Shown: positions 9,392 through 26,279 of the stretch, one piece after another
How the letters are laid out: each line of letters opens with the position of its first letter
How positions within the stretch are numbered: the first letter of the stretch is position 1
From: Candidatus Binatia bacterium
GTDB taxonomy: Bacteria > Desulfobacterota > Binatia > UBA9968
Reading direction: 5' to 3'
Length of the DNA stretch: 40,659 nt
Assembly (NCBI GenBank): GCA_044869705.1
Contig: JBIOXP010000397.1
Span: 1 to 40,659 of the forward strand
Translations under genes and position numbers: made by a program
Notes under the pieces: generated by a model
Seen by the model: only the letters and a program-made list of their open reading frames with translations
Database searches by the model: none
Told to the model about the DNA's origin: nothing

Positions 9392-9626
9392 CAGATGAGT
9401 TCAATTCAGAGTACAACCGTAAAAGGATCACTCCCGCCCACACCGTGATCGGATGTAACGTAAATCCAAACCTAATCCGCGGGTACACCGGTGATGCTTG
9501 CAACTTGCGCCTGGACATTCTATTTATGCGCTCCTGCTCGTATTTCTTTCCCCTCTTTACTTCATCTATTCTCTTCTGCGCAATTCGGGTTCAACGGAAG
9601 GTTTCGGGGATAAGCCTTTGAGCGGC

Positions 9627-9656
9627 GACTGTGGACGCGGCAGGCGCCCGACAGTC
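9627..9656 (-). terminator. GC-rich hairpin about 50 nt downstream of the methyltransferase stop (no U-tract)
   Basis: Minus-strand GACTGT-c-GGGCGC-ctgcc-GCGTCC-ACAGTC forms 6 + 6 bp, with one bulge and one G-U pair. It lies inside the only >300-nt gap of the cluster. Confidence 0.3.
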
Positions 9657-9705
9657 CTCCCTTCCTTCGGCTCTCTTTGCAGGCGAGGGCAAGGCCCAGA
9701 ACCCC

Positions 9706-10335
9706 TTACGGCTGGCGACCTCCCATATGGTCTTTTTCGACGATATAGAGGCGGTTTAGGCCGAAGACGAACGGAATGGTCCCCGCGGGGTGAAGGTGGT
9801 TCTTCGCCAGGAGGTCCTTTACCGTCTCGTCCCAGAGTCCCTTGGCCTCCTCGTGCCCGATGCCTCGCTCGAGCTGATCGGGGTCATAGCGCCGCCGGAT
9901 GGCGTGGACGACAACGCCGACAACGGGATTGATCATGGTGATCAGCAGTTGCCCGTCATCCTTGAGAACCCTCCGGGCTTCCTGCAGCACCTGGCTCCGC
10001 TTCGATTGGGGCACGTGGTTCAAGCAGGCGAGCATGACCACAGTGTCGAAATGCTTATCTTGGAACGGCAGCCTCGTAGTATCACACAGCACATCCGTCC
10101 CCGGCCATGGCCAGACATCCACTCCGATGGCTGTGCCCTGTCGTAACCTGTAGCCTCGCGCGAGCTGGTTCGTACCACACCCGATATCGAGCAACAATCC
10201 GCGGCAGTGCCGCAACGTGATTGCCACTCGTTCCTCATCAATAGGGGTGAGACCGAGGGCTCGGGCGCGTTCCGACGGTAGGAAAGCGAGCAGCGGAAAG
10301 CACAAACGGTCTTTGATCTTCTGCCAGTGCGCCAA
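9706..10335 (-). CDS. class I SAM-dependent methyltransferase (Methyltransf_11-type)
   Basis: Motif I 'LLLDIGCGTNQL', post-I 'GVDV', and 'LPFQDKHFDTVVMLACLNHV...LKDDGQLLIT'. Confidence 0.8.
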   Translation of the reverse strand: MAHWQKIKDRLCFPLLAFLPSERARALGLTPIDEERVAITLRHCRGLLLDIGCGTNQLARGYRLRQGTAIGVDVWPWPGTDVLCDTTRLPFQDKHFDTVVMLACLNHVPQSKRSQVLQEARRVLKDDGQLLITMINPVVGVVVHAIRRRYDPDQLERGIGHEEAKGLWDETVKDLLAKNHLHPAGTIPFVFGLNRLYIVEKDHMGGRQP

Positions 10336-10358
10336 GACAGAACGTCCCTACAGGCCAA

Positions 10359-10718
10359 CTACTCGCGATGCGCCGAAGTTCGACTGACTGGCTCCGCCAG
10401 CTGCTCCAAGGCCATGCTTCTAACGATTTGCGTAATCTCCTCTTCGACCCGGTTAAGCGTCAGATGGATGCGGAAAATCAGATAGAAGGCGATGACGAAA
10501 CTAACATATATAATTAGATCGGCGCCCCTCCCAATTCCGACAAGCTCGGCCAGAAAAGTACTGGTATCGGGGTGGCTAACAATAATGGCTGCGCCAACCC
10601 AGACTACGAGCCAAAAAAGTAACTGGAACGTTCGCATCTCCCGGTATCTGTATTTAAGAACACCTTTCACCAGGGCAAACAGAATGAAAGCAAGAAGAAA
10701 AAACTGGATCGGTTTCAT
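10359..10718 (-). CDS. DUF2304-family small membrane protein (3 TM plus amphipathic tail)
   Basis: 119 aa. 'MKPIQFFLLAFILFALVKGVLKYR...' with three hydrophobic helices. Size, topology and position directly after a GT2 (ATGA overlap at 10715-10718) are typical for DUF2304. Confidence 0.65.
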   Translation of the reverse strand: MKPIQFFLLAFILFALVKGVLKYRYREMRTFQLLFWLVVWVGAAIIVSHPDTSTFLAELVGIGRGADLIIYVSFVIAFYLIFRIHLTLNRVEEEITQIVRSMALEQLAEPVSRTSAHRE

Positions 10719-11410
10719 AGCGCCCCCTTCTGCACTTTCGCCAAGACTAGTTTCCCTAGAGTACGTAATCCGACCTTTAGACTTTGACCTTTAGACATAG
10801 AATAGTCTGTATAAATAGCCCTTATCGGAACTTCCGTGTACCTCAAGCGGTTTCTGGCGGTCTCAGCGACAAATTCCGAGCTCACCTCCATGCCGTTGGT
10901 TGTAATGTGAATACGTGATGCCGCCTCGTGAGAAAAAGCCCGCAGACCCGATTGAGAATCTGTTGTCCGAATCCCGAAAAGAAGGTAGGTGACCAGGTCT
11001 GCGATCCAGTGCGCCACTCGGCGGGAAGTAGGTATCCCCTCAGAGTCCTGTCGGCGGCTTCCGACCACCACGTCCGCTTTGTCTTTCTCGATAGGCTCAA
11101 TGAGCTGCTCGATGTCATTGGGATCATGCTGGCCGTCCGCATCGAACGTGACGATGACCTCCGCCCCGAGACGCAGCGCGGCGTCGATTCCCGTTCCCAA
11201 TGCGCCGCCGAGCCCCCGGTTCAGGACATGGCGGAGCCAAATCACCCCCTCGTGGGACGCTAGCTCACCGGTGCGGTCGCTGCTGCCGTCGTCGATGACA
11301 ATGAGGGTTGTAAAGCCGTGCTGCTTGAGCCCTCGGATGACCTCGACGATTGTCCGCTCCTCATTGTAGGCGGGGATGACGACGACCACTTGCTTCTCAG
11401 TCATGGACAT
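10715..11410 (-). CDS. GT2 polyprenyl-phosphate glycosyltransferase (DPM1/GtrB/ArnC-like)
   Basis: 'VVVVIPAYNEERTIVEVI...LIVIDDGSSDRTGELA' and 'VTFDADGQHDP' (DxD), 231 aa with no TM synthase domain. GGAG lies 9 nt upstream of the ATG. Confidence 0.85.
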   Translation of the reverse strand: MSMTEKQVVVVIPAYNEERTIVEVIRGLKQHGFTTLIVIDDGSSDRTGELASHEGVIWLRHVLNRGLGGALGTGIDAALRLGAEVIVTFDADGQHDPNDIEQLIEPIEKDKADVVVGSRRQDSEGIPTSRRVAHWIADLVTYLLFGIRTTDSQSGLRAFSHEAASRIHITTNGMEVSSEFVAETARNRLRYTEVPIRAIYTDYSMSKGQSLKVGLRTLGKLVLAKVQKGAL

Positions 11411-11557: not shown

Positions 11558-13528
11558 TCAATCCCCTGCCAGTCCTACGCGACGCCATCGCGCTGGATCT
11601 TGCATCGCCTGAATCGGCGCTAGCCCACTCAATGACATCCAGCGCGAACGGTGCCATGCATTGACGGCAAGCTCGATGCGTAACTGTCTGTGGGAAGGTG
11701 GCCCGCTAAGCCCGAGCGCTCGCCAGGGCAGCGAGACCTCAACTGTAATACGAGGCTGATCGCTTCCAAAGTACGTCGTCGTTGCGCCAGGAACAGAGTG
11801 GCAAGAGACTTGGTCCGCGCTGCACAGCAATGGCTTCATCATCGGGGCGCCGCGCTCGGGCACCACTCGAGGTGGAATCATATAGAGCTTGAAGCGATGC
11901 GGCCCGCCGCCCGCGTCAATGCCCCAATCCACCTGAAACGCCTCTTGCAATGGGAACTCGCCGTCATAGGCCAGCAGGTCTGGATCGTAATAATCCATCG
12001 CGATTACAGCCAGGTCTACGCCATCGGGATTCCAGGCCATGTATAGATCCCCGAACGGGATTTCAGGATCAGGGGCAATGAATGGCCCGAGCAGCGCCTG
12101 CTCTTTAGGCCATTCTCTTAGGGATCGGTCGCGGACATCGATCGCTGCACGGGGAATCTGCCAGGCGCCATCGCGAACCGAAGGGGTGGGTGGCGTCTGC
12201 TCATGGAGGGACGGCAGGTTGGGATTGACGCGACTGAACCCTTCCACGAGGCGCTCATAGGGTCGGTCATTGATATCAACCAGGCCGAAGTTATAGTCCT
12301 CGCCGTCCTCACGTCCTCCCTGCGGGTGGTCATAATACTGAAACCAGTGGAGTCCGACGATCTCTGGCTCGCGGGCGAAACGCTGTGCGGCCGCCATCGC
12401 ACCGTCGGCACGCTCAGCCTGCGTGGGGACGGTGAGCAAGTGACCGTTGTTGAGGTTGCCCGAACGATTTTCGTCTGCGGCAAAGAACCACTCGGAGATT
12501 AAGATCGGTTTACCTGGTGCGAGTTTTCGCAAGCCGTCAAAAAAATATCGCGCGAGCCATCCATCAGGGCTATCGACATTGTAGTTAGTCGATATGACAT
12601 CCACATACGGCACCATTGCTCGGACCGCGATGGGATCGTAATAGATCGGCAGGCGGTCGCCCATTATCAAAGCCTCAGGATCGGCCTCTCGAATCGCATC
12701 ATGCGCTATGCGGTAATATAGGCCGGTGATGATCCCGGTCCATTGCCGTACAAATTGGATTCCGGCACCGCCAGGTCGCAACTGCGGCGTGGGTTCCGTA
12801 TGGTGCAGCAAATCTTCGAACGAGGATGTGCCTGGGGGCGGAACGAAATCGTGGCTAAACCGGTCCCAGTTGTCGCCGTAATATTCCCGCAACCGAGCGA
12901 TGAGCTGCTGTTTGGTGTGGTTCGTTGCGGGCTGCTTCAGATAAAATATGAAAAGAGCACCATTCCACCAGCCGACTTCGTTATCAACAAAATAACCGAT
13001 GCGGTAAGGGTTACCTTTGTAGGGAAGCACGAGGCGCCGTGCCAACGTGTACATGCGGTCGATCGTGGCGGGATCAAATGGGTCAAACCAGTGAAAGCGG
13101 GCGGTCCTTCCCAACTCGAGATTGGGAGTGGTCGGTAGGTTCAATACCGTCGGTGGCAATGACCACGCCCCGGCTGTGTTGAAGCGCCAGACCTCTAGTC
13201 GTTGCTGTGTTGCGATAGCCCAACTTTCCAAGTCTGGATAGAAGCTCCCCCAATGGTAAGCAATATGTCCGTTATAGGCGCGTTGAGGAGCACCTCCATC
13301 GAGAACATTAACACCGAGCGAAAAGAAACGGTTGCCACACGGTGTGACCAACCAGTGCACACCGCCGCGGACAGTCGTCCGCCAGCGCGAATTAGGCGCC
13401 TCTTGCAGGTCTTTGCACAGCCCCGAGGAGCCGCTGGAAACGATCGTCGGCGGGGCGGTGCAGGCGAGCAGCAGAGCACTTAAAGCGAGCACGCAAATGC
13501 TCGGCAGTAGCGTCCGATGAAGTATCAC
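11558..13528 (-). CDS. lipoprotein, clan GH-A-like glycoside hydrolase with a C-terminal CBM9-like domain (family unassigned)
   Basis: Lipobox 'ALLLAC'. Candidate acid/base 'YFVDNEVGWW' and nucleophile 'ILISEWFF', plus 'DYNFGLVDINDRPY'. C-terminal ~200 aa ('DLYMAWNPDGVDLAV...') resembles carbohydrate-binding family 9. Confidence 0.55.
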   Translation of the reverse strand: MILHRTLLPSICVLALSALLLACTAPPTIVSSGSSGLCKDLQEAPNSRWRTTVRGGVHWLVTPCGNRFFSLGVNVLDGGAPQRAYNGHIAYHWGSFYPDLESWAIATQQRLEVWRFNTAGAWSLPPTVLNLPTTPNLELGRTARFHWFDPFDPATIDRMYTLARRLVLPYKGNPYRIGYFVDNEVGWWNGALFIFYLKQPATNHTKQQLIARLREYYGDNWDRFSHDFVPPPGTSSFEDLLHHTEPTPQLRPGGAGIQFVRQWTGIITGLYYRIAHDAIREADPEALIMGDRLPIYYDPIAVRAMVPYVDVISTNYNVDSPDGWLARYFFDGLRKLAPGKPILISEWFFAADENRSGNLNNGHLLTVPTQAERADGAMAAAQRFAREPEIVGLHWFQYYDHPQGGREDGEDYNFGLVDINDRPYERLVEGFSRVNPNLPSLHEQTPPTPSVRDGAWQIPRAAIDVRDRSLREWPKEQALLGPFIAPDPEIPFGDLYMAWNPDGVDLAVIAMDYYDPDLLAYDGEFPLQEAFQVDWGIDAGGGPHRFKLYMIPPRVVPERGAPMMKPLLCSADQVSCHSVPGATTTYFGSDQPRITVEVSLPWRALGLSGPPSHRQLRIELAVNAWHRSRWMSLSGLAPIQAMQDPARWRRVGLAGD

Positions 13529-14178
13529 TTTTCCTGAATTGCTTCGCCGGGCTTGACATAGAGTGTCATGAGTACTTCGAACTCAACACCTCGTTTCGTA
13601 CCCCTATGAAGTTCCTCGCTTTCGATCATGTACCCCACGTTGACAAAGAGATCTCGATACGTGCGGATGATCCAGGGACGGAGAAGCCAGTCCTCGGTCT
13701 CATCCATACTATTCGCCAGCATCAGTCGGCCGCCGCTGTTTGTTGCCTCGAAAAGCTGAACGGCGAGCCAAGCCACATCAAAAAATGGATAGAGCCAGCC
13801 CAGATAGCATATCGTTTCGCTAAAAACCACCAGATCCCACGGTCCATCGATCTGTGGATGATATTCCATGACATTCCCAACGCGGAAATCGATTTGTGTT
13901 TGGCCGGAACTTAACGAACGGGCTCGATCGATGGCGGCCTGCGATATGTCCAGAGCAACAATGCGGTCCGCGTGAGCAGCTAGCATGCCCGTGAGGTAAC
14001 CGGCGCCGCATCCGATCTCGAGTACTCGACCGTAACGCCTGCCCTCGACCATTTTGAGCAGCTGTGCACAACGATTCCGCTCATAATCCGAGCTTTCCAA
14101 GTCCCATGGATCGCCGCGTTCCCATAGGCTCTCCATGAAACGCCGTATTTTCTGATCAATAAGCTCGCGCTCCGTCAT
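13525..14178 (-). CDS. SAM-dependent methyltransferase, NodS-like
   Basis: 'GDPWDLESSDYERNRCAQLL...RVLEIGCGAGYLTGMLA...IVALDISQAAIDRAR...WDLVVFSETICYLG' follows the NodS-type (DPW...YE...LE.GC.AG) layout. ATGA overlap with the downstream GH at 13525-13528. Confidence 0.7.
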   Translation of the reverse strand: MTERELIDQKIRRFMESLWERGDPWDLESSDYERNRCAQLLKMVEGRRYGRVLEIGCGAGYLTGMLAAHADRIVALDISQAAIDRARSLSSGQTQIDFRVGNVMEYHPQIDGPWDLVVFSETICYLGWLYPFFDVAWLAVQLFEATNSGGRLMLANSMDETEDWLLRPWIIRTYRDLFVNVGYMIESEELHRGTKRGVEFEVLMTLYVKPGEAIQEK

Positions 14179-14328
14179 TGCCCCCAGCCTTATGGCTTTC
14201 GAAAGATTTGGCCTCCGGAAGCTCGGTCATCACGAATGCTCGCTCTACTTTTGCCAAAATTCCTTCAAGTGCTCGCTGATTAACTTCTCCATCGCTCGTG
14301 CTGGTTCTGCATGTACGACGTTGCTCGC

Positions 14329-15114
14329 TCAAACATCGCTTAGCGGCTGATTGCCGGCAGTACGAGTGTCCAAGAAGTTGGTAAACGACCGAAGACTGAT
14401 TCCCATCTCGGTTAGCCCGGCTCGTACTCGCGGATCGCACAAGATGCTGAGCTCCTCGAGACGCTCCCGAGAGTACAGGGTCTGCAGGTCGCACTTCGAA
14501 GCTGGATGACATGCCAGCTCTGTCCAACCCGGAGGTAACATCTCCAAAATCCCAAGCAGGCCATTGACGCTGATCACGCCGGGCAAGGCGGTACCATCGT
14601 CCGCTTGCCCATAGAAGCTACCGCAATAAGTGACTTCCGGAGAGCAACTTCGGAGCGGAACTCCCAGTCGGCGCGCGATGTCCAAAAGAATGGCACCGAC
14701 TGGCTCACGCAGGTGCACATGCTGGTGGGAATCGAGGTGAGTCGGAGGATGTCCCAGCAGGCGATCGAACACACCGAGCTGATGGTTTATTTCGTCTCGC
14801 ACCTCTGTCTCGCTTTTTAATGACACTACGCTGTAGAGCGGCACCCATTCTCCGTCGCGCAAAATCTGTTCACCGAGATCGATATGTAGACCGATGCTCA
14901 AGGCCGGATACTCTCGGGCGTAAGCGGCCGCCTCAGCGGCAGCGGGCCAACGCACCATCAGACTGGCGCTGGTGACGATACCGTTTCGAGAAGCGCTGAT
15001 GATACCCTGGTTGATTCCACGGCTCTGCCCAAAATCATCCGCGTTGACAATCAAGTTTTTAGCGGCATTGGTTCCTTCGGAATGCACGCGATTATTAGAG
15101 ACGTCTGGGAGCAT
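14329..15114 (-). CDS. YdjC/ChbG/HpnK-family carbohydrate deacetylase
   Basis: 'LIVNADDFGQSRGINQGIISA..NGIVTSASLMV' and 'LDSHQHVH' are the hallmark metal/catalytic motifs of the YdjC family. Confidence 0.8.
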   Translation of the reverse strand: MLPDVSNNRVHSEGTNAAKNLIVNADDFGQSRGINQGIISASRNGIVTSASLMVRWPAAAEAAAYAREYPALSIGLHIDLGEQILRDGEWVPLYSVVSLKSETEVRDEINHQLGVFDRLLGHPPTHLDSHQHVHLREPVGAILLDIARRLGVPLRSCSPEVTYCGSFYGQADDGTALPGVISVNGLLGILEMLPPGWTELACHPASKCDLQTLYSRERLEELSILCDPRVRAGLTEMGISLRSFTNFLDTRTAGNQPLSDV

Positions 15115-15129: not shown

Positions 15130-16383
15130 CTACAAGCCTGCTTCGCTCATCACCTGCCGGAGTAGCTTTTCAGCATTGAAATACTCCGCGGCAATTTCTT
15201 TGGCAGCCTGCGAATGCCTAGCATAATCACTATTGATCTCCTCAATTGCAGGAGGGATATCCTCGAGCTTTTCAAACGCATACAAACCGAAGCCAGTGGG
15301 AATAAACTTGCTGAAACCGGTCTCCTGAGTGATTACTGGCTTGCCGGCAGCGAGATAGCAGGCGCTTCGCTCACTGAACCAACCGCTGCGCAAGCGTACG
15401 TTCATGTCCTTGGCGACCGTGAGTTCGCCGCGGGCAAGCCAAATGTACTCGCGGTAACTCTCTAGCGTCTTGGAAACCTTATAGGCGTCTTCGATGCGCC
15501 ACCCGTGGGCTTCGAGGATCTGCACGGCGGCCGGATCGTCTATGGCCAAGGCCAGAGAAAATTCCTGAGCCGTGCGGCTCGGCAGCTCGACGATTTTTAA
15601 AAACTCGCGATGCTTGCTCCAGGAGTAGCGTTCGCCGTTGTGCTCTAAGTCTTTAACCGACTGATCCCAATGAGCAATAGTCGTAAAGAAGCGCGTCGCC
15701 GGGTTACAGGGGGAATCCCAATAGTTGAGAATCACGGGAGAACGGGTGGGTTTATACGTGAAAGGCGCAACTGGAACAGCGCAATCCGTTTCGCCGTAAT
15801 TCGCTCCCCACGTGAAGAGCGCCGTGTGCGCCGACACGAGATCGATATATCTTTTCTCACCATTGGCGATGCGGATCTGATGCACTACGGGATCGGTTTC
15901 AAGATAGATGCGGATCGGACATCTCATGTGCTCGTCACGCAAAACCGTTCCGCCGAAAAGATTAATGATGGCGTCGGCGCGAGCATACAGATCTTCCACC
16001 TGACGCTCTGAGAGGCCGTAGCACCGATTATCGCTATGCGCGGCGACATAGGCCCATCTATCCTGGAAACCAAAGCGGTTCAGCAGCGCGCCGATGTAGC
16101 TCACTGGATACGTGCAATCGTCGCTTGTGGCATCGAAAGGCCAAACACCAGTCGCCTCCACGTAGTAGACATCATATCCAAGACGACGAAGCGCGATGAG
16201 ATGCTGGACAGTATTCCAGGCCACACCGGTTCCGGCCACCGGTAAACAGCCCATAATCCCTAGTACCACGACAACCTTGGGCTTACCGGTGTTCACGCGT
16301 TTTCTATTTTTCTCCACGCGTTCGAAACGTTCTCTAGAAGGCGGTAGGCGCGGAATCTCGGAAAACCCGTCAATCGCGGCCAT
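15130..16383 (-). CDS. GT-B-like glycosyltransferase, uncharacterised family (paralog 2)
   Basis: Paralog of 16370-17599. C-terminal 'RSACYLAAGKPVITQETGFSKFIPTGFGLYAFEKLEDIPPAIEEINSDY..H..AAKEIAAEYF' resembles the Glyco_trans_1_2/CgeB-type C-domain. Confidence 0.5.
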   Translation of the reverse strand: MAAIDGFSEIPRLPPSRERFERVEKNRKRVNTGKPKVVVVLGIMGCLPVAGTGVAWNTVQHLIALRRLGYDVYYVEATGVWPFDATSDDCTYPVSYIGALLNRFGFQDRWAYVAAHSDNRCYGLSERQVEDLYARADAIINLFGGTVLRDEHMRCPIRIYLETDPVVHQIRIANGEKRYIDLVSAHTALFTWGANYGETDCAVPVAPFTYKPTRSPVILNYWDSPCNPATRFFTTIAHWDQSVKDLEHNGERYSWSKHREFLKIVELPSRTAQEFSLALAIDDPAAVQILEAHGWRIEDAYKVSKTLESYREYIWLARGELTVAKDMNVRLRSGWFSERSACYLAAGKPVITQETGFSKFIPTGFGLYAFEKLEDIPPAIEEINSDYARHSQAAKEIAAEYFNAEKLLRQVMSEAGL

Positions 16384-17599
16384 TCATGGCCTCCTCCACC
16401 AGTCGGGTGAGCACTCGGCTCGCATCGAAATAGTCCGCAGCGATCTCACGGGCGGCCTTGGCATGCCGCCCATAGTTTGCTTCGATCTCCCTGATGGAAA
16501 CCACCGCATCCTCCAAAGTACTGAAGGCGAGAAGGCCCTCGCCTGTTGGAAGTACCGCGCTGAACCCGGTATCCTGAACCGCGACTGGCCGCCCCGCCGC
16601 TAAATAGCACGCCGACCGACAACTGAACCAACCTGGTCGTCCGACGACATAGCCATTTTTCGCGACGCTCCACTCGGCTTTAGAAGATTCGACGTAATTG
16701 CGATAGCTGTCGAGATCGGGACAGACCTCGGCTGGATCCACGACCCGCCATCCCTTACGGGCTAACAGGTGACGTGGAGTGCGGCGAGTTTTCCCGGCAT
16801 TGACAGCGATTTCCAGAGCCGTTGGAGCGATCAGCTGCGGCAACTCCTGGAACCGAACGAACTCGAGATCTTTTTGCCCATAGCTTCGATTGCCGTAGAC
16901 GACAGGCTTGTAACTCGTCCAGTTCATCACGGTAGTGAAAACCTCCCGAAATGGTTTTTCAGGATGCCACTCTGAGAGCACGATTGGCTGCCGTGTCGGG
17001 CGCCAGTGGTGACCAGTCTGAGGCACGTCCGACGAGAGAGATTCGCCGAAGCTAAACTGAACGTCATGGGCATCGATCCATTTGCGAAAATCGAGCTGAC
17101 CGCGCGCCAGCTTCAGCTGTGTGAAGACGGGATCCGAATCGATATAGGCCAGGCGCTTTACCTGTCGATATTCCTCGGGGCGCTCGATAGTTCCGGAAAC
17201 GTTGATGAGCAAGTCGGCGGAGCGAATAATCTCTTGTCGTTTCGCGTCAGAAAGCCCAAACCACTGCGATTGCCACGGGAAGCGATACGCCCACTGCCCA
17301 GCCAACCCATAACGCGACATGACAGTAGCGAGATATTGAACATTGAAATCACAGTCTTTGCCCAACCCGCCTTCTCGGGGGTTATAGGGCCATTGCCCGG
17401 TATCCTCGAGATAGTACACATCGTGGCCGAGTTGGGCGAGGCCGAGAACATACTGAAAGTAATCCCAAGTGACACCGCCTAGCGGGTACTGAGCGATGAG
17501 TCCTGTGACGATGATGCGTAGTCTCGATCTCACCTGAGCTGAAACTAACCCACGTCGCCCCAAACGCTGTGGATCTGGGAGGCCCGGGACGAAGGACAT
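16370..17599 (-). CDS. GT-B-like glycosyltransferase, uncharacterised family (paralog 1)
   Basis: 'IIVTGLIAQYPLGGVTWDYFQYVLGLAQLGHDVYYLED' N-domain. C-terminal 'RSACYLAAGRPVAVQDTGFSAVLPTGEGLLAFSTLEDAV..IREIEANY'. 14-nt overlap with paralog 2. Confidence 0.5.
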   Translation of the reverse strand: MSFVPGLPDPQRLGRRGLVSAQVRSRLRIIVTGLIAQYPLGGVTWDYFQYVLGLAQLGHDVYYLEDTGQWPYNPREGGLGKDCDFNVQYLATVMSRYGLAGQWAYRFPWQSQWFGLSDAKRQEIIRSADLLINVSGTIERPEEYRQVKRLAYIDSDPVFTQLKLARGQLDFRKWIDAHDVQFSFGESLSSDVPQTGHHWRPTRQPIVLSEWHPEKPFREVFTTVMNWTSYKPVVYGNRSYGQKDLEFVRFQELPQLIAPTALEIAVNAGKTRRTPRHLLARKGWRVVDPAEVCPDLDSYRNYVESSKAEWSVAKNGYVVGRPGWFSCRSACYLAAGRPVAVQDTGFSAVLPTGEGLLAFSTLEDAVVSIREIEANYGRHAKAAREIAADYFDASRVLTRLVEEAMNGRD

Positions 17600-17610: not shown

Positions 17611-19392
17611 TTATTTTATCAGCCGGATTTTGCGCTGCTCTTCATGAAACGCGAACTGAGTTCGATACATCGATGCAAAGACTCCCCCGCGGCGCAGTAG
17701 CTCGGCGAACGTGCCTTGCTCTGCAATGCTGCCATCGCGCAAAACCAGGATGAGATCAGCCTGGCGGATGGTGGAGAGACGGTGTGCGATGATGAAGGTG
17801 GTTCTCCCCGCCATGAGACGCTGTAGCCCCTCCATGATGAGCGCCTCGGTTTCGGTATCGACAGAAGACGTGGGCTCGTCGAGGATCAGTATCGGTGCAT
17901 CGAGCAAAACCCCACGCGCAATCGTGAGGCGTAATTTCTGTCCTTCCGACAATGTGGCTGCCTGTTCTCCCACGACCGTGTCGTACTTTTCCGGTAGCTC
18001 TTCTATGAAATCGTGCACCTGGGCCACCTTCGCGGCGGCCGTAACTTCCTCCAAAGAAGCTTCCGGTCGGCCATAGGCGATGTTTTCCCGAATGCTGAAG
18101 GGGAAGAGCACAGGCGGTTGAAGAACCATGGCCATTTGCCGGCGCAAAGATTTCAGTTGAAACTGGCGGATATCGACACCGCCGATTGTGATTCGGCCGG
18201 ACTGCGGATCATGGAACCGCAGTAGCAGACTGACCAATGTTGATTTTCCCGCGCCCGTCGGACCGACAATAGCCACTTTCGTCCCTGGCGCGATCTGCAA
18301 ATTAATATTTTTTAGAACAGGTTTGGCTGAATCATACCCAAATATAACCTGCTCGAAAGAGATCTCAGTTTTCGCGCTTTGGTTCTCCAGCGCCTTATGC
18401 CCATCGGGCACGACCTGTTGCGAGTCGAGAATGTCGAAGGCTCTGCGGACGCCGATTTTTGCGCTTTGAACCAGCCCATAGGTCTCGAAAATACTATGAA
18501 GTGGCGCATAAAGAGACGCGAGATAGGAGGTAAACACAACCATGTCGCCAACCGAGAGTGCTCCGGACAAAACGTGCCGCGTACCTATCCATAAGACCGC
18601 GGCGGTTCCCGCTGCAATCGTCACGTTCACCACGGCAGAATAAAAATTCTGCAGATTAAAGAGGCGCAGATCCGCTGCCAGACTCTCGGTGCTGGCGTTG
18701 ACAAAGCGCCGCTCTTCATCCTCTTCTTTGGTAAAAGCCTGAATAACGCGTATTCCTGACAGCGTTCGCTGCACGAGAGAATAGACTAGACTCTCCTTAT
18801 GGCGCGCGTGCGCGGCCGCAGACGACATTTTCTTGTTTAGGAGCCCAATGGTAACGAACAATGCGGGGCATACCACGAGAGCCAATAACGTGAGATAGAG
18901 ATCCAACGAGAGCATCACGACAAACATGCCCGATAGGAGCACCAAAGCGGACAGGACGGAAAAGAATCCGTTCATCGTCAGCGTTTGAATGCCTAGGGTA
19001 TCGGCCGTGATCCGATACATGAGATCACCGATCTGCTGGCGGGTATGAAAAGAGAGGGATAGGCGCTGGAGGTGGCTGTACAAATCGCGACGCAGATCAT
19101 TTACCATTCCCTGCCCGATCCGTATCGTTGTGTAGTCGTTTAGCACGCGGAGCGCGCCCACGAGCAAATAAATAAGAACAAGGCTTATGCAAGCGGCCAC
19201 CAGGAGGGTCTCTGCCGACCAACTAAGACGAATCCCGAACGGAAGCGGGTGATTGCTCAGAATATTGTCAATGATAATCTTGAGCGGCCACGGCTTGAGG
19301 AGCTCAAGCGCGCTAATTACGATAACTTGCGCGAGCGCGAAAACGAAAGCTGGCCAATACGGCTTTAGGTAAGAACGAACCGTGCGTTTCAT
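17611..19392 (-). CDS. ABC exporter, fused TMD-NBD half-transporter (MsbA/NdvA class)
   Basis: Six-helix TMD, then Walker A 'GPTGAGKST', signature 'LSEGQ', Walker B 'ILILDEPTS', H-loop 'IIAHRLST'. Start set at ATG 19392 (MKRTVRSYLKPYW) because the longer track ORF would overlap the upstream gene. Confidence 0.9.
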   Translation of the reverse strand: MKRTVRSYLKPYWPAFVFALAQVIVISALELLKPWPLKIIIDNILSNHPLPFGIRLSWSAETLLVAACISLVLIYLLVGALRVLNDYTTIRIGQGMVNDLRRDLYSHLQRLSLSFHTRQQIGDLMYRITADTLGIQTLTMNGFFSVLSALVLLSGMFVVMLSLDLYLTLLALVVCPALFVTIGLLNKKMSSAAAHARHKESLVYSLVQRTLSGIRVIQAFTKEEDEERRFVNASTESLAADLRLFNLQNFYSAVVNVTIAAGTAAVLWIGTRHVLSGALSVGDMVVFTSYLASLYAPLHSIFETYGLVQSAKIGVRRAFDILDSQQVVPDGHKALENQSAKTEISFEQVIFGYDSAKPVLKNINLQIAPGTKVAIVGPTGAGKSTLVSLLLRFHDPQSGRITIGGVDIRQFQLKSLRRQMAMVLQPPVLFPFSIRENIAYGRPEASLEEVTAAAKVAQVHDFIEELPEKYDTVVGEQAATLSEGQKLRLTIARGVLLDAPILILDEPTSSVDTETEALIMEGLQRLMAGRTTFIIAHRLSTIRQADLILVLRDGSIAEQGTFAELLRRGGVFASMYRTQFAFHEEQRKIRLIK

Positions 19393-19405
19393 CAGCAGGC
19401 TGTTT

Positions 19406-22012
19406 TCACAGCGTGTCTTTAGCTTCCACCGGCACGAATTCGAGCTTGTGCGCCAACGATTCCATAACATGGTAGAGCAGGCGGCCAAGGCGGAACTTCT
19501 GGTAGAGAATAGCGCCGGCGTGAACAATGCCGATCGAGGCTGCTGCGAGGGCGAGTTGAGTCATATCCAGCGATGCTGCGATCGTTGTCGCGGCGGCGTA
19601 AACCCCCAGGCAACCCGCGGAAACTCTGGACATCCGCAGCGCGCAGCGCACTCTCAACAGACGCTTCGCCCCGCCGTGATTCTCGACGGCGGTTTTGATC
19701 TGGGCTTTGGCCCATGGCCCTTGGCAAATTTCCAAGTCCCATTGGCTCCAGCCCTGATCCATCGCGATGAGATACTTACGCGGCAGCAGAAATTCCATCA
19801 CCGCATGCAGCAGACTTTCCTTTTCCTGTCCACGCTCATTCCAGTACGACAGATAGAACGCCGCTTCATGCCACAAGATGCGTACTTCCTGCCGGGTGCC
19901 GTTGAATTCGAACGGCTTCACCTCGCGAAAGCGACGCAGACGCCAGCGATAACGCTCCAGCGTACGAATCAGCGGCCCGATATAAATTAACAACGCGATG
20001 AGAAGCGTTGCACGCCATCCCTGGAAAGGCGGCATCACTCGAGCATGCAGTGCGCTTGTGACGCAACGACTGAGCGTCAGTCCGAACGGCGCCAGCCCGA
20101 GCCAGAACCAGTCGCCTAATACCAGCGCGCAAGCCAAGAGCGCGAGCGAAAGCAAATTCCATTCGAGGGTCAGCGGCAGGCACGCAACCACGGACGGGGG
20201 AGGCTGGTATAGAGTCTGGAAAAGACCGCGCCCGAAAACTCCGGAATAAATCCGTTGCTGATGGCTCGCCAGGAAGGAAGATAAATCACCGTAGATTCTG
20301 CCGAACCAACGCGATTGACCCAGCACGTTAAAACGGCTGGGATGCTTGAAAAACAGCAGAGTTTCCGCCTTGCCGTAACCGCGTTGCTGCTTCAGATAAT
20401 CGCGCACGGTATTGCGGCGAAAGTGCCAGACCACCGCAGCCGGAGAGAAACCGATCTTGTAACCTTTGTTCTGCAGACGCCAGCACAGATCCACATCATC
20501 GCCTGCCGCACGGAAAATCGGATCGAATCCGGAGATCGCTTTAAGTGCGTCGTGACGAAACGCCATGTTGCAACCCGGAATGTGCTCCGCGACTTCGTCA
20601 TCCAGCAAGACGTGCGCTGGCGCGCCGGGTGAAACCGCGACACAAGACGCCACAAACGAGTCGTCGGGCGGCGTCAAATTAGGTCCGCCCACCGCAGCAA
20701 AGTCGGATGATTGAAAACGCGCCACCAAGTAGGTGAGCCAATCCGCATCGACCATGCAGTCGGCGTCGGTAAAAGCGATGATATCGCCGCCGGCTGCTCT
20801 GATGCCGACATTGCGGGCTTCGCTCAGGCCTTTATTGTCCTGATTGATGAGCCGAATGTACGAATAACCTTCGGCGATTTGCCGCGTCCGATCGGTCGAG
20901 CCATCGTTCACAACGACAACTTCGTAGTCGGGATAGTTAAGTTTCTTCAGCGACCCAAGACACGAATCGAGGGTACGCTCGCCATTGTAAACGCATACAA
21001 TGACCGAGACTTTAGGATGCGCGGGAAGCGGCGGCGGCAGCGTGCCGCCATAGTATTGTTGGACTGCCCCGAATGCAGGTTTTTTGTCTCGATAACGATC
21101 AACCAATCCGAAGGCCCAATCCTCGACCTGAAATCCCTCCGGACCGGAGTACGCGTGCCAATCGTCGGTCCAGGAAAAGACCACTGTTCCCGCCACTCCC
21201 GATTCAAAGCTGGCGCGCAATTGCCAGGATAGCGCGTCGGCCTGAAACTGGCGGCCCTGTCCTATCGAATCAATGCCGATTTCTGTCAGGACCAGCGGTC
21301 GGTCTCCGGCAAGATTATGGAGGTGAGATAAATAACGGCGAAAGTCTTCTTCACGATGAAGGTAAACATTGAAAGCCACGAAGTCCAAGAAATCGGTTTC
21401 GAGATATTCAGTCGATGGAAAGTTGGCATAACTCACCAGCGCGCCGGCATCGCCGCTCTTGGCCGTATCCACGAGAGTAGCGAGAAACCTGCGTATCTTT
21501 TTGGCGCCGTACCAGCGTACGATTTCCGGAGGAATCTCGTTGCCAACGAGATAAGCGAAGATCGCAGGGTGGGAGCTGCAGGTGCCTACTGCATGGGCGA
21601 TGGTTTCGCGAATTTCCGACCGCGTGCGCTTGGAATCCAGAAACGAAATGTGCTGCGGCCAAGGAATACCGACGATCACGCGAAGACCATGGGCCGCCGC
21701 TTTGTCGAGAATCGATTTAGGCGGAACGGTAAAAGTACGAAGGCAATTAACTCCGAGCTCTGCCATAAGCGAGAAGTCCAAGTCTACCTTCGCAAGCTCC
21801 GGAAATGGCACGCCGCCGGCGTTCGGGGCAAACGGTCCGTACGTCACCCCTTTGACGAAAAACTTTTGCTCTTTACGGAAAAAGAACCGTCCACGCTGAT
21901 CGATTCTCTCGAGGACTAAGGGTTTGCTCGAGCGGCGAACTTCGATCAGCGGCAAGCTCGGTACGCTTATGTCAGGCGTACCATGTAGCTCGAGCAACGA
22001 GGGCATCGACAT
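19406..22012 (-). CDS. fusion protein: N-terminal clan-GH-A-like barrel + GT2 glycosyltransferase + C-terminal multi-TM module (putative glycan synthase)
   Basis: aa ~45-320: 'FFVKGVTYGP', 'LVGNEIPPE' (E159), 'LVLTEIGID' (E244). aa ~334-555: 'VSVIVCVYNGERTL', 'VVVNDGSTD', 'FTDADC', 'GCNMAFR', 'GDDVDLCWRL', 'KQQRGYGKAE'. aa ~605-868: about five hydrophobic helices. Confidence 0.8.
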   Translation of the reverse strand: MSMPSLLELHGTPDISVPSLPLIEVRRSSKPLVLERIDQRGRFFFRKEQKFFVKGVTYGPFAPNAGGVPFPELAKVDLDFSLMAELGVNCLRTFTVPPKSILDKAAAHGLRVIVGIPWPQHISFLDSKRTRSEIRETIAHAVGTCSSHPAIFAYLVGNEIPPEIVRWYGAKKIRRFLATLVDTAKSGDAGALVSYANFPSTEYLETDFLDFVAFNVYLHREEDFRRYLSHLHNLAGDRPLVLTEIGIDSIGQGRQFQADALSWQLRASFESGVAGTVVFSWTDDWHAYSGPEGFQVEDWAFGLVDRYRDKKPAFGAVQQYYGGTLPPPLPAHPKVSVIVCVYNGERTLDSCLGSLKKLNYPDYEVVVVNDGSTDRTRQIAEGYSYIRLINQDNKGLSEARNVGIRAAGGDIIAFTDADCMVDADWLTYLVARFQSSDFAAVGGPNLTPPDDSFVASCVAVSPGAPAHVLLDDEVAEHIPGCNMAFRHDALKAISGFDPIFRAAGDDVDLCWRLQNKGYKIGFSPAAVVWHFRRNTVRDYLKQQRGYGKAETLLFFKHPSRFNVLGQSRWFGRIYGDLSSFLASHQQRIYSGVFGRGLFQTLYQPPPSVVACLPLTLEWNLLSLALLACALVLGDWFWLGLAPFGLTLSRCVTSALHARVMPPFQGWRATLLIALLIYIGPLIRTLERYRWRLRRFREVKPFEFNGTRQEVRILWHEAAFYLSYWNERGQEKESLLHAVMEFLLPRKYLIAMDQGWSQWDLEICQGPWAKAQIKTAVENHGGAKRLLRVRCALRMSRVSAGCLGVYAAATTIAASLDMTQLALAAASIGIVHAGAILYQKFRLGRLLYHVMESLAHKLEFVPVEAKDTL

Positions 22013-22791
22013 GTGTAGGTTGAATCGCTCCTTCTCTGTGCAGGCCTAAACCCGGAAAATGATTTCAGAATGGATACTGAAACGTCGAACTACGTGGCAA
22101 CAATGATGCCAGCAAACGGATGAACAGTTTTTATTGGTTTTACATACGGTTGCTTCATTGTTGGGACTGACACCTGCAGGGTTTAGCATTCACGAAATGG
22201 AACAGGGTGCCTTCCGGATTACTGATTGTACCGACATGACTATTAGACGCGTCTCACGCAATTCAATTCGAAAATTTTCCGCAGCTCGCTTGATGATTGC
22301 GATCTCGGAGGCGAAAAATTAGCGTCGCGCTCTGTAGCTAATTTTCGGCTGGTATTATTGTTATTGGCTGACTTTAATTGCGTTTGGTAGGGAACAATAC
22401 GCAAATCATCTGATCTCAGCGGGATTCGTAAAACAACTGACTCAGGTAGCGTGTGTAATGCCCGTTTTTTCCTCGTCGATGGTGGATTTTAAACCTAGTC
22501 CAATAAAATAAAACAATGGCAAAGACAAGTGCGGTTTCTGCACAAGAAACTCTCTCTGCATAGCGCGGAAGATACATCATTCGCGGCGTCGGGCCGTAGC
22601 GCAATCGGTCTCGGTCGCCGAAAGCCTGCACGCATGATCGTGATTCGAACGAAAATTCAAAACTGACGACGCACCAGAAAAGATAATTAGCGAACCGGAA
22701 AAACCAGCCTCCGGCACACGATTTGATCGCGTTATCGTAAAGTGATTGAGTACCAGGAACTCGAGTTAGTAGCACGGACTACGCATGAAAG
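22013..22791. promoter_or_regulatory. long AT-rich divergent intergenic / leader region between the glycan operon and the coiled-coil/AsmA genes
   Basis: Hand counts of 60-nt lines give 25/60, 23/60 and 28/60 GC, against 33-43/60 in the flanking genes. Both flanking genes point away from it. GAAGGAG lies about 14 nt upstream of the ATG at 22012. Confidence 0.45.
22063..22082. promoter_or_regulatory. perfect inverted repeat TTTCAG-N8-CTGAAA about 50-70 nt upstream of the synthase start
   Basis: Read directly: tttcag aatggata ctgaaa. Its position fits an operator or a 5'-UTR hairpin. Confidence 0.2.
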
Positions 22792-23813: not shown

Positions 23814-26279
23814 ATGCGTAAATGGCTGATTGCCGGCGCAATTTTGCTGATATTGATTATCGTGGGAGTGGTCGGACTGCTCAATATCAATGCGCTCATT
23901 GCACGTAATAAGAACTATTTGATTGGCCAGGCCGAAGCCGCTTTGGGACGGAAAGTTTCCGTAGACAAAGTTGAGGCGACACTCTTCAGCGGCATCGGCG
24001 CGCGCCTTACAAATTTCACCATGGCCGATGATCCTGCCTATGCGAGCGGCGATTTTGTCCGGGCAAAGGATCTTCAGGTAATCGTGAAGTTTTGGCCGTT
24101 GTTAAGAAAGAGCGTGCAGGTGAAACGGGTGATTCTGCACGATCCCGTGATCCAGATCGTGCGCAATCGAGATGGCAATTTCAATTTCTCGACAATCGGC
24201 AAAACAGCCAAAGAGAAAACCGAGGATGAGCGTCGCAAACAAGCGCGCGCGCCAAGAGAAGAACAGTCGGCTCTGCTCATTTCGCTGGTCGATATCTCAA
24301 ACGGAAACATCCGTTATGTCGACAAGAAAAACGGCACCGACATGCAGGCGAAACAGATCGATCTCAAGATTGAGGATTTCGATTTTGCCAAGCCGTTTTC
24401 GATCAAGCTGAAGGCGGCGATTTTCGCGGACAAGCAAAACTTTTCACTGGCGAGCAGAGTGGGACCGCTCAATCAAAACGTTCCGGCGACCGAAATTCCC
24501 GTCGATGGCAAGATCGACATCGATCCCCTTAACATGACGCAATTGCGCGCTGCATTGCCGATAGCAAAGTCGGCTCTGCCCAGGGACTTCGATATCTCCG
24601 GCGTTTACCGGGTCAAGGACCTCAAATTCAAAGGAACGTTGAACAACCTGGCGCTCGACGGCCAGCTCGAAGGAACCAACGGTGCGCTGCGTTACGGCAA
24701 TGCTTTTCAAAAACCGGCAGGCGATCCCCTCGCGCTGAGCCTGGCCGTCAAGGTTGCCGGCAATAAAATCACGATCCGCAACGGCCAGCTGAAACTCCAT
24801 TCATTGGAGCTTGCCGCAGCCGGAGATATTCAGACGGGAGATAATCCAGCTCTTAACCTCTCGTTGGACTCGAAACCGGCGTCCCTGGAAGGTTGGGATC
24901 GGATTGTTCCTGCTCTTGCCGATTATCAACTGTCAGGAACTATAGATGTGAAAGCGACGATCCGCGGCAGCATCGGTAAGGGAGCCGCGCCACAGATTCA
25001 GGGGACGCTCGGACTGAGAAAAGTCAGCGCAAAACCACCGAGTTTTCCCAAACCGATCGAGGATCTCGATACCACGATCAAATTCTCCGGTCAGAGAGCC
25101 GATATCAGCGACATGACTCTGAGCCTTGGAAAGTCGCGCATTCGTGTCGCGGCGGCTATTGAAAAATTCGCCCCGCTAACGCTCTCGTACAAAATGTCGA
25201 CGGCCGAGCTTTGGCCCGCGGATTACAGCGCCGCGCTTCCGGAGGAACGCAAGAGCGACGTCATTCGTAATTTGCAGAGCGCGGGGCAGTTCAGCATGTC
25301 GAGCGGTGATATGGTCTACCAAGGAAGACTGAGCTCGGCGGACGGCACACTCTACAATGTGCCATATAAAGCTCTCGACGCGACGCTTTCGCTGGCCGAT
25401 AAGGTGGCCAACATCAAGAGTTTACGCGTCAATGCGCTCAGCGGCGCGTTACAGCTGGACGGGCAGTACTCGTTCAAAGAAGCTGTGCCGCAATTTTCGA
25501 TGGCGTCGAAGGTTCAAAACATCGATGTGAAAGAGCTCTACACACTTCTCGATGCCAAGGCGGAGCGCGACATACGCGGCAGGATGAATGCGGATATGAA
25601 GCTTGCCGGAAGCGGCAAGAGTTGGGAAACGATCAAACCGACATTACATGGCCAAGGTGATGCCGAAGTCATGCAAGGCGCTCTGCTCAATTTCAATATT
25701 GCCGACAACGTGATCACGGGGATTACCGGCATACCTGGACTGACCAACGCGATAAATCCCTCGTTGAAAGCAAAATATCCCGAGACTTTTACGGCCAAAG
25801 ACACCGAGTTCAAAGAGCTCAAAGCGAATTTTGATCTGGCGGACGGTCGAATGAACGTCAAAAACATGCGCATGGCCGCGGCGGACTTCGTGGTTCAAGG
25901 AAATGGCTGGGCGGATTTCGAGCGCAAGCTCGACTTTCGAGCGACACTAATCTTTTCCCAACGCTTATCGGCTGATCTCAGCCAATCGGCTCGGGAGATG
26001 AAATACCTTTTGAACAATCAAGGACAACTCGAGGTGCCGTTTGCTCTGACCGGCAGGATGCCCAACGTGAGGCCCAAGCCGGACACGCGCTACCTCGGCC
26101 AAATGGTGCAGCGCGGTTTTTTGCGAAAAGGAACGGAAGAGCTGCAGAATCGTTTTTTGGGCGGAGGCAAAGACTCCGCGGCGCAGAATGAACAAACGCC
26201 GAGTGACAGTAACAGAAAGAAAAAAACCTCGACCGAAGACATGATCCGGCGCGGGCTCGAAGGTCTCTTCAAACGCTGA
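23814..26279 (+). CDS. AsmA-family envelope protein (N-terminal anchor plus long beta-rich periplasmic domain)
   Basis: 'MRKWLIAGAILLILIIVGVVGLL' anchor. 'LGRKVSVDKVEATLFSGIGARLTNFTMADDP...FVRAKDLQVIVKFWPLL...VKRVILHDPVIQIVRNRDGNFNFS' is the canonical AsmA N-domain. AsmA_2-like C-terminal part. Confidence 0.85.
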   Translation: MRKWLIAGAILLILIIVGVVGLLNINALIARNKNYLIGQAEAALGRKVSVDKVEATLFSGIGARLTNFTMADDPAYASGDFVRAKDLQVIVKFWPLLRKSVQVKRVILHDPVIQIVRNRDGNFNFSTIGKTAKEKTEDERRKQARAPREEQSALLISLVDISNGNIRYVDKKNGTDMQAKQIDLKIEDFDFAKPFSIKLKAAIFADKQNFSLASRVGPLNQNVPATEIPVDGKIDIDPLNMTQLRAALPIAKSALPRDFDISGVYRVKDLKFKGTLNNLALDGQLEGTNGALRYGNAFQKPAGDPLALSLAVKVAGNKITIRNGQLKLHSLELAAAGDIQTGDNPALNLSLDSKPASLEGWDRIVPALADYQLSGTIDVKATIRGSIGKGAAPQIQGTLGLRKVSAKPPSFPKPIEDLDTTIKFSGQRADISDMTLSLGKSRIRVAAAIEKFAPLTLSYKMSTAELWPADYSAALPEERKSDVIRNLQSAGQFSMSSGDMVYQGRLSSADGTLYNVPYKALDATLSLADKVANIKSLRVNALSGALQLDGQYSFKEAVPQFSMASKVQNIDVKELYTLLDAKAERDIRGRMNADMKLAGSGKSWETIKPTLHGQGDAEVMQGALLNFNIADNVITGITGIPGLTNAINPSLKAKYPETFTAKDTEFKELKANFDLADGRMNVKNMRMAAADFVVQGNGWADFERKLDFRATLIFSQRLSADLSQSAREMKYLLNNQGQLEVPFALTGRMPNVRPKPDTRYLGQMVQRGFLRKGTEELQNRFLGGGKDSAAQNEQTPSDSNRKKKTSTEDMIRRGLEGLFKR

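Follow-up and report, generated by a model that had tools for sequence, protein, structure and literature searches.

Here we describe a synthase gene on a 40,659-nucleotide contig of a Candidatus Binatia bacterium (JBIOXP010000397.1, assembly GCA_044869705.1; this whole analysed stretch is called the window below), which encodes an N-terminal glycoside hydrolase (GH) barrel resembling family GH157, a family 2 glycosyltransferase (GT2) and a C-terminal membrane module in a single polypeptide of 868 amino acids (aa). Sequence comparison, structure modelling and synteny established the identity of the domains, the position of the barrel's catalytic residues and their invariance, the lack of an export signal and a conserved gene cassette with an ATP-binding cassette (ABC) exporter; an enzyme that may make a β-glucan oligosaccharide and rework it in the cytoplasm before export is the reading that we favor. 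GH-GT2 fusions as such are known already; what is new here is the GH157-like family, the predicted cytoplasmic location of the GH domain, the QQxGY motif, the unassigned C-terminal module, the ABC/GT-B cassette and the spread in uncultured soil phyla. No description of this synthase family was found in the searchable literature.

19406-22012, minus strand: gene for the 868-aa fusion of GH157-like barrel, GT2 and C-terminal membrane module (open reading frame (ORF), Pfam, AlphaFold2 (AF2) model, homologues)
21908-22012, minus strand: variable, low-confidence leader, aa 1-35, without signal peptide or transmembrane (TM) segment (predicted local distance difference test score (pLDDT) 32-39)

The ORF begins with ATG and ends with a TGA stop codon at 19406-19408, and a 5' extension is impossible, since the ORF list opens each ORF at the first start codon past a stop. 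The initial annotation of this DNA had proposed a three-module layout of barrel, GT2 and C-terminal TM part within 868 aa, which the ORF, Pfam and the AF2 model of the whole synthase, built on 111 relatives (pLDDT 81.5; predicted template modelling score 0.78), all bore out. The motifs that it had quoted were likewise found at the positions given, both in the barrel (FFVKGVTYGP at 51, LVGNE at 155 with E159, LTEIG at 242 with E244) and in the GT2 (NDGSTD at 369, DAD at 416 and 422, GDDVDL at 504, QQRGY at 542). More than 120 full-length homologues with 70-91 % identity were collected, and conservation was assessed in an alignment of 51 full-length sequences, the query and 50 relatives, spanning 35-91 % identity. 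In these 51 family members the leader ahead of the barrel measures 7-62 aa and is non-hydrophobic and poorly conserved; it was modelled as disordered.

The feature is real and not a chance arrangement, since the N-terminal domain recurs in at least 592 species-level genomes and in 473 cluster representatives. The former number comes from a genome scan with a single-protein query against one genome per GTDB species, which returned at least 592 confirmed relatives, mostly of the same 815-915-aa architecture; the latter comes from an exhaustive search with the N-terminal domain, which at E<=1e-30 returned 473 sequences, each standing for a cluster at 50 % identity, most of the complete ones again 815-915 aa long with the barrel at the N-terminus. 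Among the matches listed, the relatives are nearly all metagenome-assembled genomes (MAGs), from Binatia, Methylomirabilota/Rokubacteria, 'Deltaproteobacteria', Verrucomicrobiota, Gemmataceae, Armatimonadota and cyanobacteria, and the closest is a Binatia MAG at 91 % identity. No copy of the GH-GT2 fusion was present in the plasmid collection. Apparent stand-alone GH genes turned out to be fragments of a GH, GT2, C-terminal module and ABC string on frameshift-prone contigs, with the order kept; as pieces of the fusion, they were rejected as Rosetta-stone evidence.

The N-terminal domain comprises the following features.

21038-21907, minus strand: clan GH-A (β/α)8 barrel, a GH157-like retaining glycosidase/transglycosylase domain, aa 36-325 (phmmer, profile, Foldseek, strand pattern)
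21536-21538, minus strand: codon of E159, predicted acid/base, pairing with E132 in 'LVINE' of GH157 from Labilibaculum antarcticum (LaGH157); invariant, n=51; codon verified
21281-21283, minus strand: codon of E244, predicted nucleophile, on strand 7, pairing with LaGH157 E224; invariant

A (β/α)8 glycosidase fold had been suggested for this domain, with an AlphaFold model and a Foldseek search named beforehand as the test. Both were run, and both agreed: the AF2 model contains eight alternating strand/helix units with a pLDDT of ~90, and the top Foldseek matches were the LaGH157 structures 9g4n and 9fz9 (E 2e-14), with GH157 and GH2 barrels leading the list. Strand 4 spans residues 151-158 and thereby places N158-E159 at its C-terminal end, and strand 7 (residues 240-245) contains E244, as had been predicted for the two glutamates; the modelled barrel is thus a clan GH-A (4/7) arrangement in both its fold and its Glu placement. 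By sequence, the closest solved protein was PDB 9fz9/9g4n/9g5g (phmmer E 1.3e-14 over aa 36-328), identified through the Foldseek description as GH157 of L. antarcticum. According to the same description, these structures include a complex with laminaribiose and an E224A mutant with laminaritriose (9g4n); counted along the phmmer alignment, E159 pairs with E132 and E244 with the mutated E224. Literature queries on 9FZ9, 9G4N, 9G5G, LaGH157, and Labilibaculum antarcticum together with laminarin returned no paper.

A search with a profile of the domain gave E 3.5e-22 for GH157, 1.4e-12 for the best GH2 entry, 4e-8 for GH158 and 1.2e-5 for GH72, whose matched entries are 1,3-β-glucanosyltransferases. 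Similarity across the full domain was therefore stronger to GH157 than to any other GH family matched, by phmmer and by profile. An early guess had called the domain GH2/GH5-like and left its family open; GH2 is indeed matched, but GH157 is nearest by about ten orders of magnitude. The Pfam match to the GH2 TIM barrel (PF02836, aa 49-253) is marginal, at E 2.5e-5 and 24 bits against a cut-off of 21. GH2 membership was rejected, given this far better match to GH157 and the absence, by Pfam and in the model, of the GH2 accessory domains before the barrel (PF02837, sugar-binding; PF00703, immunoglobulin-like), where just ~35 disordered residues are found; a comparison GH2 in the window (5722-7968) carries all three GH2 domains. 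No Pfam match to GH17 (PF00332) was obtained in the synthase even at E<=1.

Ten residues of the barrel are invariant in the 51 sequences (E159, E244, N89, W118, R166, D210, N215, Y227, D283 and W299), and N158 is conserved in at least 90 %. Because the catalytic Glu pair and the other active-site-type residues are invariant, the barrel is very probably catalytically active. We call it GH157-like and do not claim membership, because its identity to LaGH157 is only ~22 %, and it could equally represent a sister family. Both GH157 and GH158 appear in a published list of β-1,3-glucanase families (PMC10637969), and a characterized GH157 enzyme cleaves linear β-1,3-glucan, while its activity on pustulan was undetectable (PMC10229575). 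The GH157 endo-β-1,3-glucanases, namely LaGH157 and BcellWH2_01931 of Bacteroides cellulosilyticus, share with the synthase the clan GH-A barrel and the paired catalytic Glu; however, they stand alone, serve degradation, are secreted or sit at the cell surface, and carry a further C-terminal region of ~200 aa (PMC10229575), whereas the synthase barrel is leaderless, predicted to be cytoplasmic and fused directly to a GT2, with neither secretion or surface location nor the accessory region.

GT2 enzymes need nucleotide sugars and hence work in the cytoplasm. No signal peptide or TM segment precedes the GT2 in any of the 51 family members, and a 19-aa Kyte-Doolittle scan (mean >1.5) detected no hydrophobic stretch before the GT2 in the query or the 50 relatives. 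Since the GT2 meets its nucleotide sugars in the cytoplasm and no membrane crossing is predicted between the two domains, the barrel is predicted to be cytoplasmic as well, unlike the periplasmic GH17 of NdvB. This location had already been proposed from the query, and the 51-member comparison supports it.

20345-21016, minus strand: GT-A-fold GT2 of the cellulose-synthase-like class, aa 333-556 (Pfam, NCBIfam, PgaC alignment, invariant residues)

The key residues of the GT2 are D370, D416-x-D418, PGCNMAFR (479-486), D505-D506 and QQRGY (542-546), the last on helix 536-556. Pfam assigned PF00535 to aa 336-491 (E 6e-34), together with PF13641, PF13632 and PF13506, and the best curated families in NCBIfam were MftF, EpsD and PgaC. 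A BLASTP comparison with E. coli PgaC (E 5e-22, 248 aligned residues) paired all motifs: NDGSTD with NDGSTD, D416-A-D418 with DGD, PGCNMAFR with SGVIAAFR, GDDVDLCWRLQ with TEDIDISWKLQ and KQQRGY with KQRLRW; the PgaC family itself scored 104 bits (E 8e-30). The D, DxD and (T)ED motifs of processive GT2s are thus present as D370, D416-A-D418 and D505-D506, invariant in the 51 sequences. The canonical Q(Q/R)xRW is replaced by QQRGY, with R to G (G545) and W to Y (Y546) fixed across the family, and Q542, Q543, Y546 and G547 invariant; the suggestion that QQRGY is a variant at the QxxRW position held in the full-length PgaC alignment. These comparisons place the GT2 in the cellulose-synthase-like branch and make processivity plausible.

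With the PgaC/BcsA/NodC class the synthase shares the D, DxD, (E/D)D, Qxx(R/G)(W/Y) and G-x-x-x-x-F-R acceptor motifs, one-to-one with PgaC, as well as PF13632; it differs in lacking N-terminal TM helices, in replacing the R and W of QxxRW, and in its C-terminal membrane part, which is non-homologous and probably too small for a channel. [quoted passage not shown] MftF iteratively adds β-1,4-glucose, giving oligomers of up to nine glucose units (PMC7491314). Membership in MftF was rejected, as the match (166.9 bits over aa 328-569) lies under the equivalog cut-off of 280; apart from the GT2 similarity, no mft genes were found in the window. In annotated plasmids, MftF and archaeal GT2s come nearest to the GT2, with an identity of 33-36 % that is confined to the GT-A core.

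The GT-A core is flanked by no N-terminal TM helices, and is followed by a module built of two hairpins with 3-residue outer turns, which comprises the following elements.

20192-20344, minus strand: conserved Gly/aromatic-rich segment, aa 557-607 (conservation; pLDDT 24-59)
20045-20191, minus strand: TM hairpin 1, aa 608-656, helices 608-632 and 636-656 with a 3-residue outer turn (family hydropathy 1.3-1.7 and 1.2)
19922-20017, minus strand: amphipathic Arg-rich helix, aa 666-697 (single helix 666-695 in the AF2 model)
19628-19921, minus strand: α/β insert of 6 strands and 1 helix, aa 698-795 (separate model)
19499-19627, minus strand: TM hairpin 2, aa 796-838, AF2 helices 796-814 and 818-856 with a 3-residue outer turn (hydropathy 1.79 and 1.25)

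Family hydropathy placed the TM helices at 608-632/636-656 and 796-814/818-838, and a separate model of aa 601-868 reached a pLDDT of 90.7. The module had been described as about five hydrophobic helices split by a ~110-aa soluble insert; the soluble insert was recovered, at ~100 aa, while the helices resolve into four TM helices in two hairpins plus the amphipathic helix. In segment 557-607, W569, G571 and G591 are invariant, and its excess of K+R (5.7) over D+E (1.8) argues for a cytoplasmic position; because it is strongly conserved yet modelled with low confidence, it is a candidate for a mobile gating or acceptor loop. Helix 666-697, with a mean hydropathy of 0.81 and then -1.63 and K+R of 2.2 and 4.4, probably lies on the cytoplasmic membrane surface. 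By family statistics, all charged segments of the module fall on the K/R-rich side, which, with the insert, is presumably the cytoplasm. The small size of the module and its near-absent outer loops argue against a BcsA-type channel in the monomer. No Pfam family matched the module even at E<=10, and Foldseek against the PDB returned nothing at E<=1e-3, the hits being weak START/Bet v1- and KA1-like matches with a best E of 0.028. PilZ-like regulation by the insert was also considered and rejected: an RxxxR-like run is present by eye, but the DxSxxG motif is absent.

Downstream of the synthase, three genes on the same strand recur as its partners.

17611-19392, minus strand: ABCB/MsbA-type half-transporter, 593 aa (Pfam ABC_membrane and ABC_tran), a conserved partner
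16370-17599, minus strand: paralogue A, 409 aa, candidate divergent CgeB-like GT-B glycosyltransferase (PF13524, E 0.006)
15130-16383, minus strand: paralogue B, 417 aa, of the same GT-B-like family, 35 % identical to A (alignment)

The ATG of the ABC exporter (19392) lies 13 nt past the synthase TGA. Its mechanically called ORF (17611-19527) opens at a TTG inside the synthase gene; the true start at 19392 gives 593 aa, as in two further loci (L081 and L082). Synteny was counted in 80 loci out of the at least 592 relatives, with denominators restricted to loci with enough downstream DNA. The ABC gene adjoins the synthase in 49 of 71 such loci, and GT-B-like genes occur in 46 of 65, at 1-4 copies per locus; the combined synthase-ABC-GT-B cassette recurs in Binatia, Methylomirabilota and related MAGs. 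In NCBIfam, the exporter scored 441 bits against MsbA_rel and 391 bits against a glucan ABC transporter model, all under cut-offs. The GT-B assignment of the partner family rests on PF13524 (CgeB-like GT-B), matched by 26 of its 53 members with a best E of 5e-7; a profile of the family yielded only sub-threshold GT-B matches in the PDB, and a PDB sequence search with the 409-aa partner gave no match. In several loci (L003, L009, L013, L022, L023 and others) the GT-B partner is amplified to three or four tandem paralogues, which suggests diversified decorating steps. No further family recurred near the synthase in more than ~8 of the 80 loci. The Verrucomicrobiota and Gemmataceae loci (L053-L080), whose synthases are 41-48 % identical to the query, usually have no adjacent ABC gene, several of them having queA next; in these lineages export must be encoded elsewhere or work differently.

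We propose that an inverting cellulose-synthase-like GT2 would build a short β-linked glycan from a uridine diphosphate (UDP)-sugar at the cytoplasmic face of the membrane, with β-glucan the most likely product and a β-1,3 linkage favored solely because of the family affinities of the barrel. The GH157-like barrel, with E159 as acid/base and E244 as nucleophile, would act on the nascent chain as a transglycosylase or in chain release, and could set its length, branching or cyclisation; either role is more probable than hydrolysis, because hydrolysing its own product in the cytoplasm would be futile. The C-terminal module would serve as an anchor and possibly as a regulatory or lipid-facing domain. 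As it appears too small for a BcsA-type export channel, the product would be handed to the adjacent ABCB-type exporter and so reach the periplasm, and one to four CgeB-like GT-B paralogues may add further sugars. The domain-level conclusions are solid, and we infer the product and the mechanism, that is, the sugar, its linkage, transglycosylation over hydrolysis, a free versus a lipid-linked product, and export by the ABC protein. We assign a probability of roughly 0.45 to this reading, namely synthesis of a β-glucan oligosaccharide in the cytoplasm, its cutting or transglycosylation there, and export by the ABC protein. A bolder version, which we hold only tentatively and as unlikely, is that the family is an independently evolved machine for exported β-glucan, possibly cyclic or branched, in which an MftF/PgaC-like GT2 and a GH157-like transglycosylase would share a nascent chain in the cytoplasm and a new C-terminal module would couple them to a dedicated ABCB exporter.

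A parallel in logic is the cyclic β-1,2-glucan synthase Cgs, which keeps its entire set of catalytic domains in the cytoplasm and whose completed glucan leaves through the ABC transporter Cgt (PMC10901819). Cgs with Cgt/ChvA/NdvA thus matches the synthase in combining a cytoplasmic glycosyltransferase with a GH-type transglycosylase or length control and ABCB-type export. The parts, however, are not homologous: Cgs joins a GT84, an (α/α)6 cyclase and a GH94 phosphorylase in ~2,800 aa, whereas the synthase joins a GT2 and a GH157-like barrel in 868 aa.

Further genes of the window, several of which bear on the product, are as follows.

14329-15114, minus strand: YdjC-family carbohydrate deacetylase (PF04794, 1.7e-47; ChbG 134 bits and HpnK 122 bits, both under cut-off)
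13525-14178, minus strand: NodS-like S-adenosylmethionine-dependent methyltransferase (PF05401, 1.5e-17; NF041650 65 bits against a cut-off of 300)
11558-13528, minus strand: GH50-like lipoprotein, 656 aa, with a lipoprotein-like N-terminus ending in LLLAC (PDB 4bq2, GH50 β-agarases, E 2.4e-20)
2596-3885, minus strand: OpgC-family membrane acyltransferase (PF10129, 1.3e-106), at the distal end of the same-strand cluster

The YdjC and NodS-like pair inside the operon (13525-15114) recalls Nod-factor tailoring, in which deacetylation is followed by N-methylation. The GH50-like protein has no Pfam match and a homologue near the synthase in only 1-2 of the 80 loci, and the family is unexpected in a glycan cluster of a soil MAG. 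Further along, the genes at 5722-11410 (minus strand) encode a PpgS-like polyprenyl-phosphate-sugar synthase (169 bits against a cut-off of 370), a methyltransferase that matches MftM weakly, a GT-C enzyme (PMT_2) and the three-domain GH2; as a group they resemble a module that glycosylates and trims in the periplasm and draws on a lipid-phospho-sugar as donor. The OpgC-family gene is flanked by genes for two NonGDSL/SGNH-type proteins and a second GT-C (PMT/PMT_2) (1805-2674, 972-1808 and 4126-5586), all on the synthase strand, a grouping that points to O-acylation of some glycan in the periplasm; osmoregulated periplasmic glucans need opgC for their succinylation (PMC4726272). Two GT-C enzymes lie on the synthase strand in the same cluster, as do the OpgC-family gene and candidate periplasmic GHs, the last two giving the β-glucan reading some context specific to the window. 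In the divergent 780-bp intergenic region upstream of the synthase (22013-22791), neither a σ70-consensus promoter nor an Rfam family was found, and the window as a whole contained no Rfam families or tRNAs. Divergently upstream lies a gene of the AsmA/YhdP family of bridge-like lipid transport proteins (23814-26279, plus strand), which is not conserved beside the synthase elsewhere. A partial ORF at the window edge (1-966, plus strand) matches the animal haem peroxidase family (PF03098, E 5e-26). This family is uncommon in bacteria.

Several observations weigh against a cytoplasmic, ABC-exported β-glucan. The identity of the barrel to GH157 is ~22 %, so specificity is not safely transferable, and its next-best matches are GH2-type glucuronidases and galactosidases. 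Replacement of the R and W of QxxRW by G545 and Y546 means that processivity is not assured, and Foldseek ranks non-processive GT2s (6p61, RmlT, TarS, ppGalNAcT) and the 4-TM PcManGT above BcsA. The exporter is of the generic ABCB type, nearest to lipid and drug exporters, with Cgt outside its top 60 PDB matches; a ranking against solved transporters did not discriminate between a glucan and a lipid substrate. Loci without an ABC neighbor are almost all from Verrucomicrobiota. In the window, the YdjC and NodS-like genes hint at an amino-sugar product and not a glucan, and the OpgC gene lies ~15.5 kb downstream of the synthase, with none found within ±10 kb of the synthase in the other loci (80 examined).

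The main rival reading is a lipid-linked glycoconjugate. Here the GT2, held by a DPMS/PcManGT-like 4-TM anchor, would glycosylate a membrane lipid such as polyprenyl phosphate, a glycerolipid or a hopanoid, the GT-Bs would extend the glycan at the cytoplasmic face, an MsbA/PglK-like ABC protein would flip the glycolipid, and the GH would trim, edit or transfer it en bloc. The ABC protein does score best against MsbA-related and MsbA models and ABCB lipid/drug exporters; PcManGT (GT-A plus 4 TM) can be aligned from end to end with a template modelling score of 0.56-0.57 normalised to the target; PF13506, the lipid-directed GT21 family, matches at 1.3e-11, beside a weak HpnI match; GT-B partners are typical of stepwise assembly on lipid; and the PpgS-like synthase and the GT-C enzymes lie in the same cluster. 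The best fold matches of the insert, START/Bet v1 lipid-binding and KA1 membrane-binding domains, would fit as well, but they are not significant (E >= 0.028 for the START-like ones). Moreover, the enzymes most closely related to the GH domain are endo-enzymes that require an oligomeric or polymeric glucan (PMC10229575), the GT2 motifs align with those of the polymerising PgaC and its closest curated family, MftF, is iterative, and no priming phosphoglycosyltransferase is conserved beside the synthase. We regard a lipid-linked product as a serious candidate that is nevertheless unlikely. An amino-sugar oligosaccharide, following the logic of Nod factors or poly-N-acetylglucosamine, appears improbable. 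In that scheme the GT2 would polymerise N-acetylglucosamine, YdjC would de-N-acetylate it, the NodS-like enzyme would N-methylate it, the ABC protein would export it and the GH would limit its length. The products of NodC likewise remain in the cytoplasm; NodB and NodS modify them, and an ABC exporter carries them out. Of the curated GT2 families, PgaC gives one of the best matches, with GDDVDLCWRLQ aligned to TEDIDISWKLQ, and the YdjC protein, in the same operon as the NodS-like methyltransferase, reaches its 134 bits against chitin disaccharide deacetylase; yet YdjC is found in 6 of the 80 loci and the NodS-like gene in 1-2, which makes them accessory, both score far under their equivalog cut-offs, NodC itself matches at only 47 bits, and the relatives of the GH (GH157, GH158, GH72, GH2) are not known as chitinases or hexosaminidases.

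The two remaining alternatives concern the barrel. It might be inert, a carbohydrate-binding or scaffold domain that holds acceptor or product for the GT2, as the apparent wastefulness of hydrolysing its own product in the cytoplasm and the poorly modelled loop 282-295 beside strand 8 could indicate; however, inactive homologues normally lose their catalytic residues, whereas here both glutamates and other active-site-type residues stay invariant and Asn158 highly conserved across 35-91 % identity, which makes an inert barrel highly improbable. Least credible of all is a cyclic β-1,3-glucan synthase of the NdvB type, in which the synthase would pass the chain through a channel of its own to a periplasmic GH that acts on it. 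The NdvB-type enzymes (P. aeruginosa NdvB, the Pseudomonas 'Orphan' proteins, Glt1/3/7) do have the same order of an N-terminal clan-A GH, related to β-1,3-glucan enzymes, and a C-terminal GT2 in one polypeptide (PMC11005184), and the same division of labour is proposed for them, the GT2 making the chain and the GH transglycosylating it (PMC11005184, PMC10237404). Nevertheless, prediction puts their GH17 in the periplasm, preceded by a signal peptide and joined to the GT2 by a linker of three TM helices (PMC10237404), two features absent in 51 of 51 members here, and PF00332 goes unmatched. Their GT2 has a BcsA-like channel and canonical QRxRW, whereas the synthase shows QQRGY, is followed by an adjacent ABC exporter gene and has just four TM helices, whose outer loops measure 3 residues. 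The analogy to NdvB drawn in the initial annotation is therefore apt for domain composition and fails as family membership, which was rejected given the missing GH17 and the contradictory topology.

Periplasmic and cyclic glucans play a central part in osmoadaptation, in envelope signalling, in symbiosis and in antibiotic tolerance, and their synthesis is understood for only a few proteobacterial systems (OpgGH, NdvB, Cgs). The synthase family described here is abundant, for the most part in soil phyla without cultured members and with almost unexplored envelope glycobiology, and its fusion of a predicted cytoplasmic clan-A glycosidase with intact catalytic residues to a synthase is unusual and predicts coupled synthesis and transglycosylation before ABC export. 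If the β-glucan reading is true, GH157-like enzymes, known from degradation, would gain a role in biosynthesis, and the synthase would provide a compact 868-aa enzyme for defined β-gluco-oligosaccharides. If the bolder version holds, Binatia, Methylomirabilota, Verrucomicrobiota, Planctomycetota and further soil phyla without cultured members would possess a functional equivalent of the osmoregulated or cyclic periplasmic glucans of proteobacteria, made by a glucan route distinct from OpgH, NdvB and Cgs.

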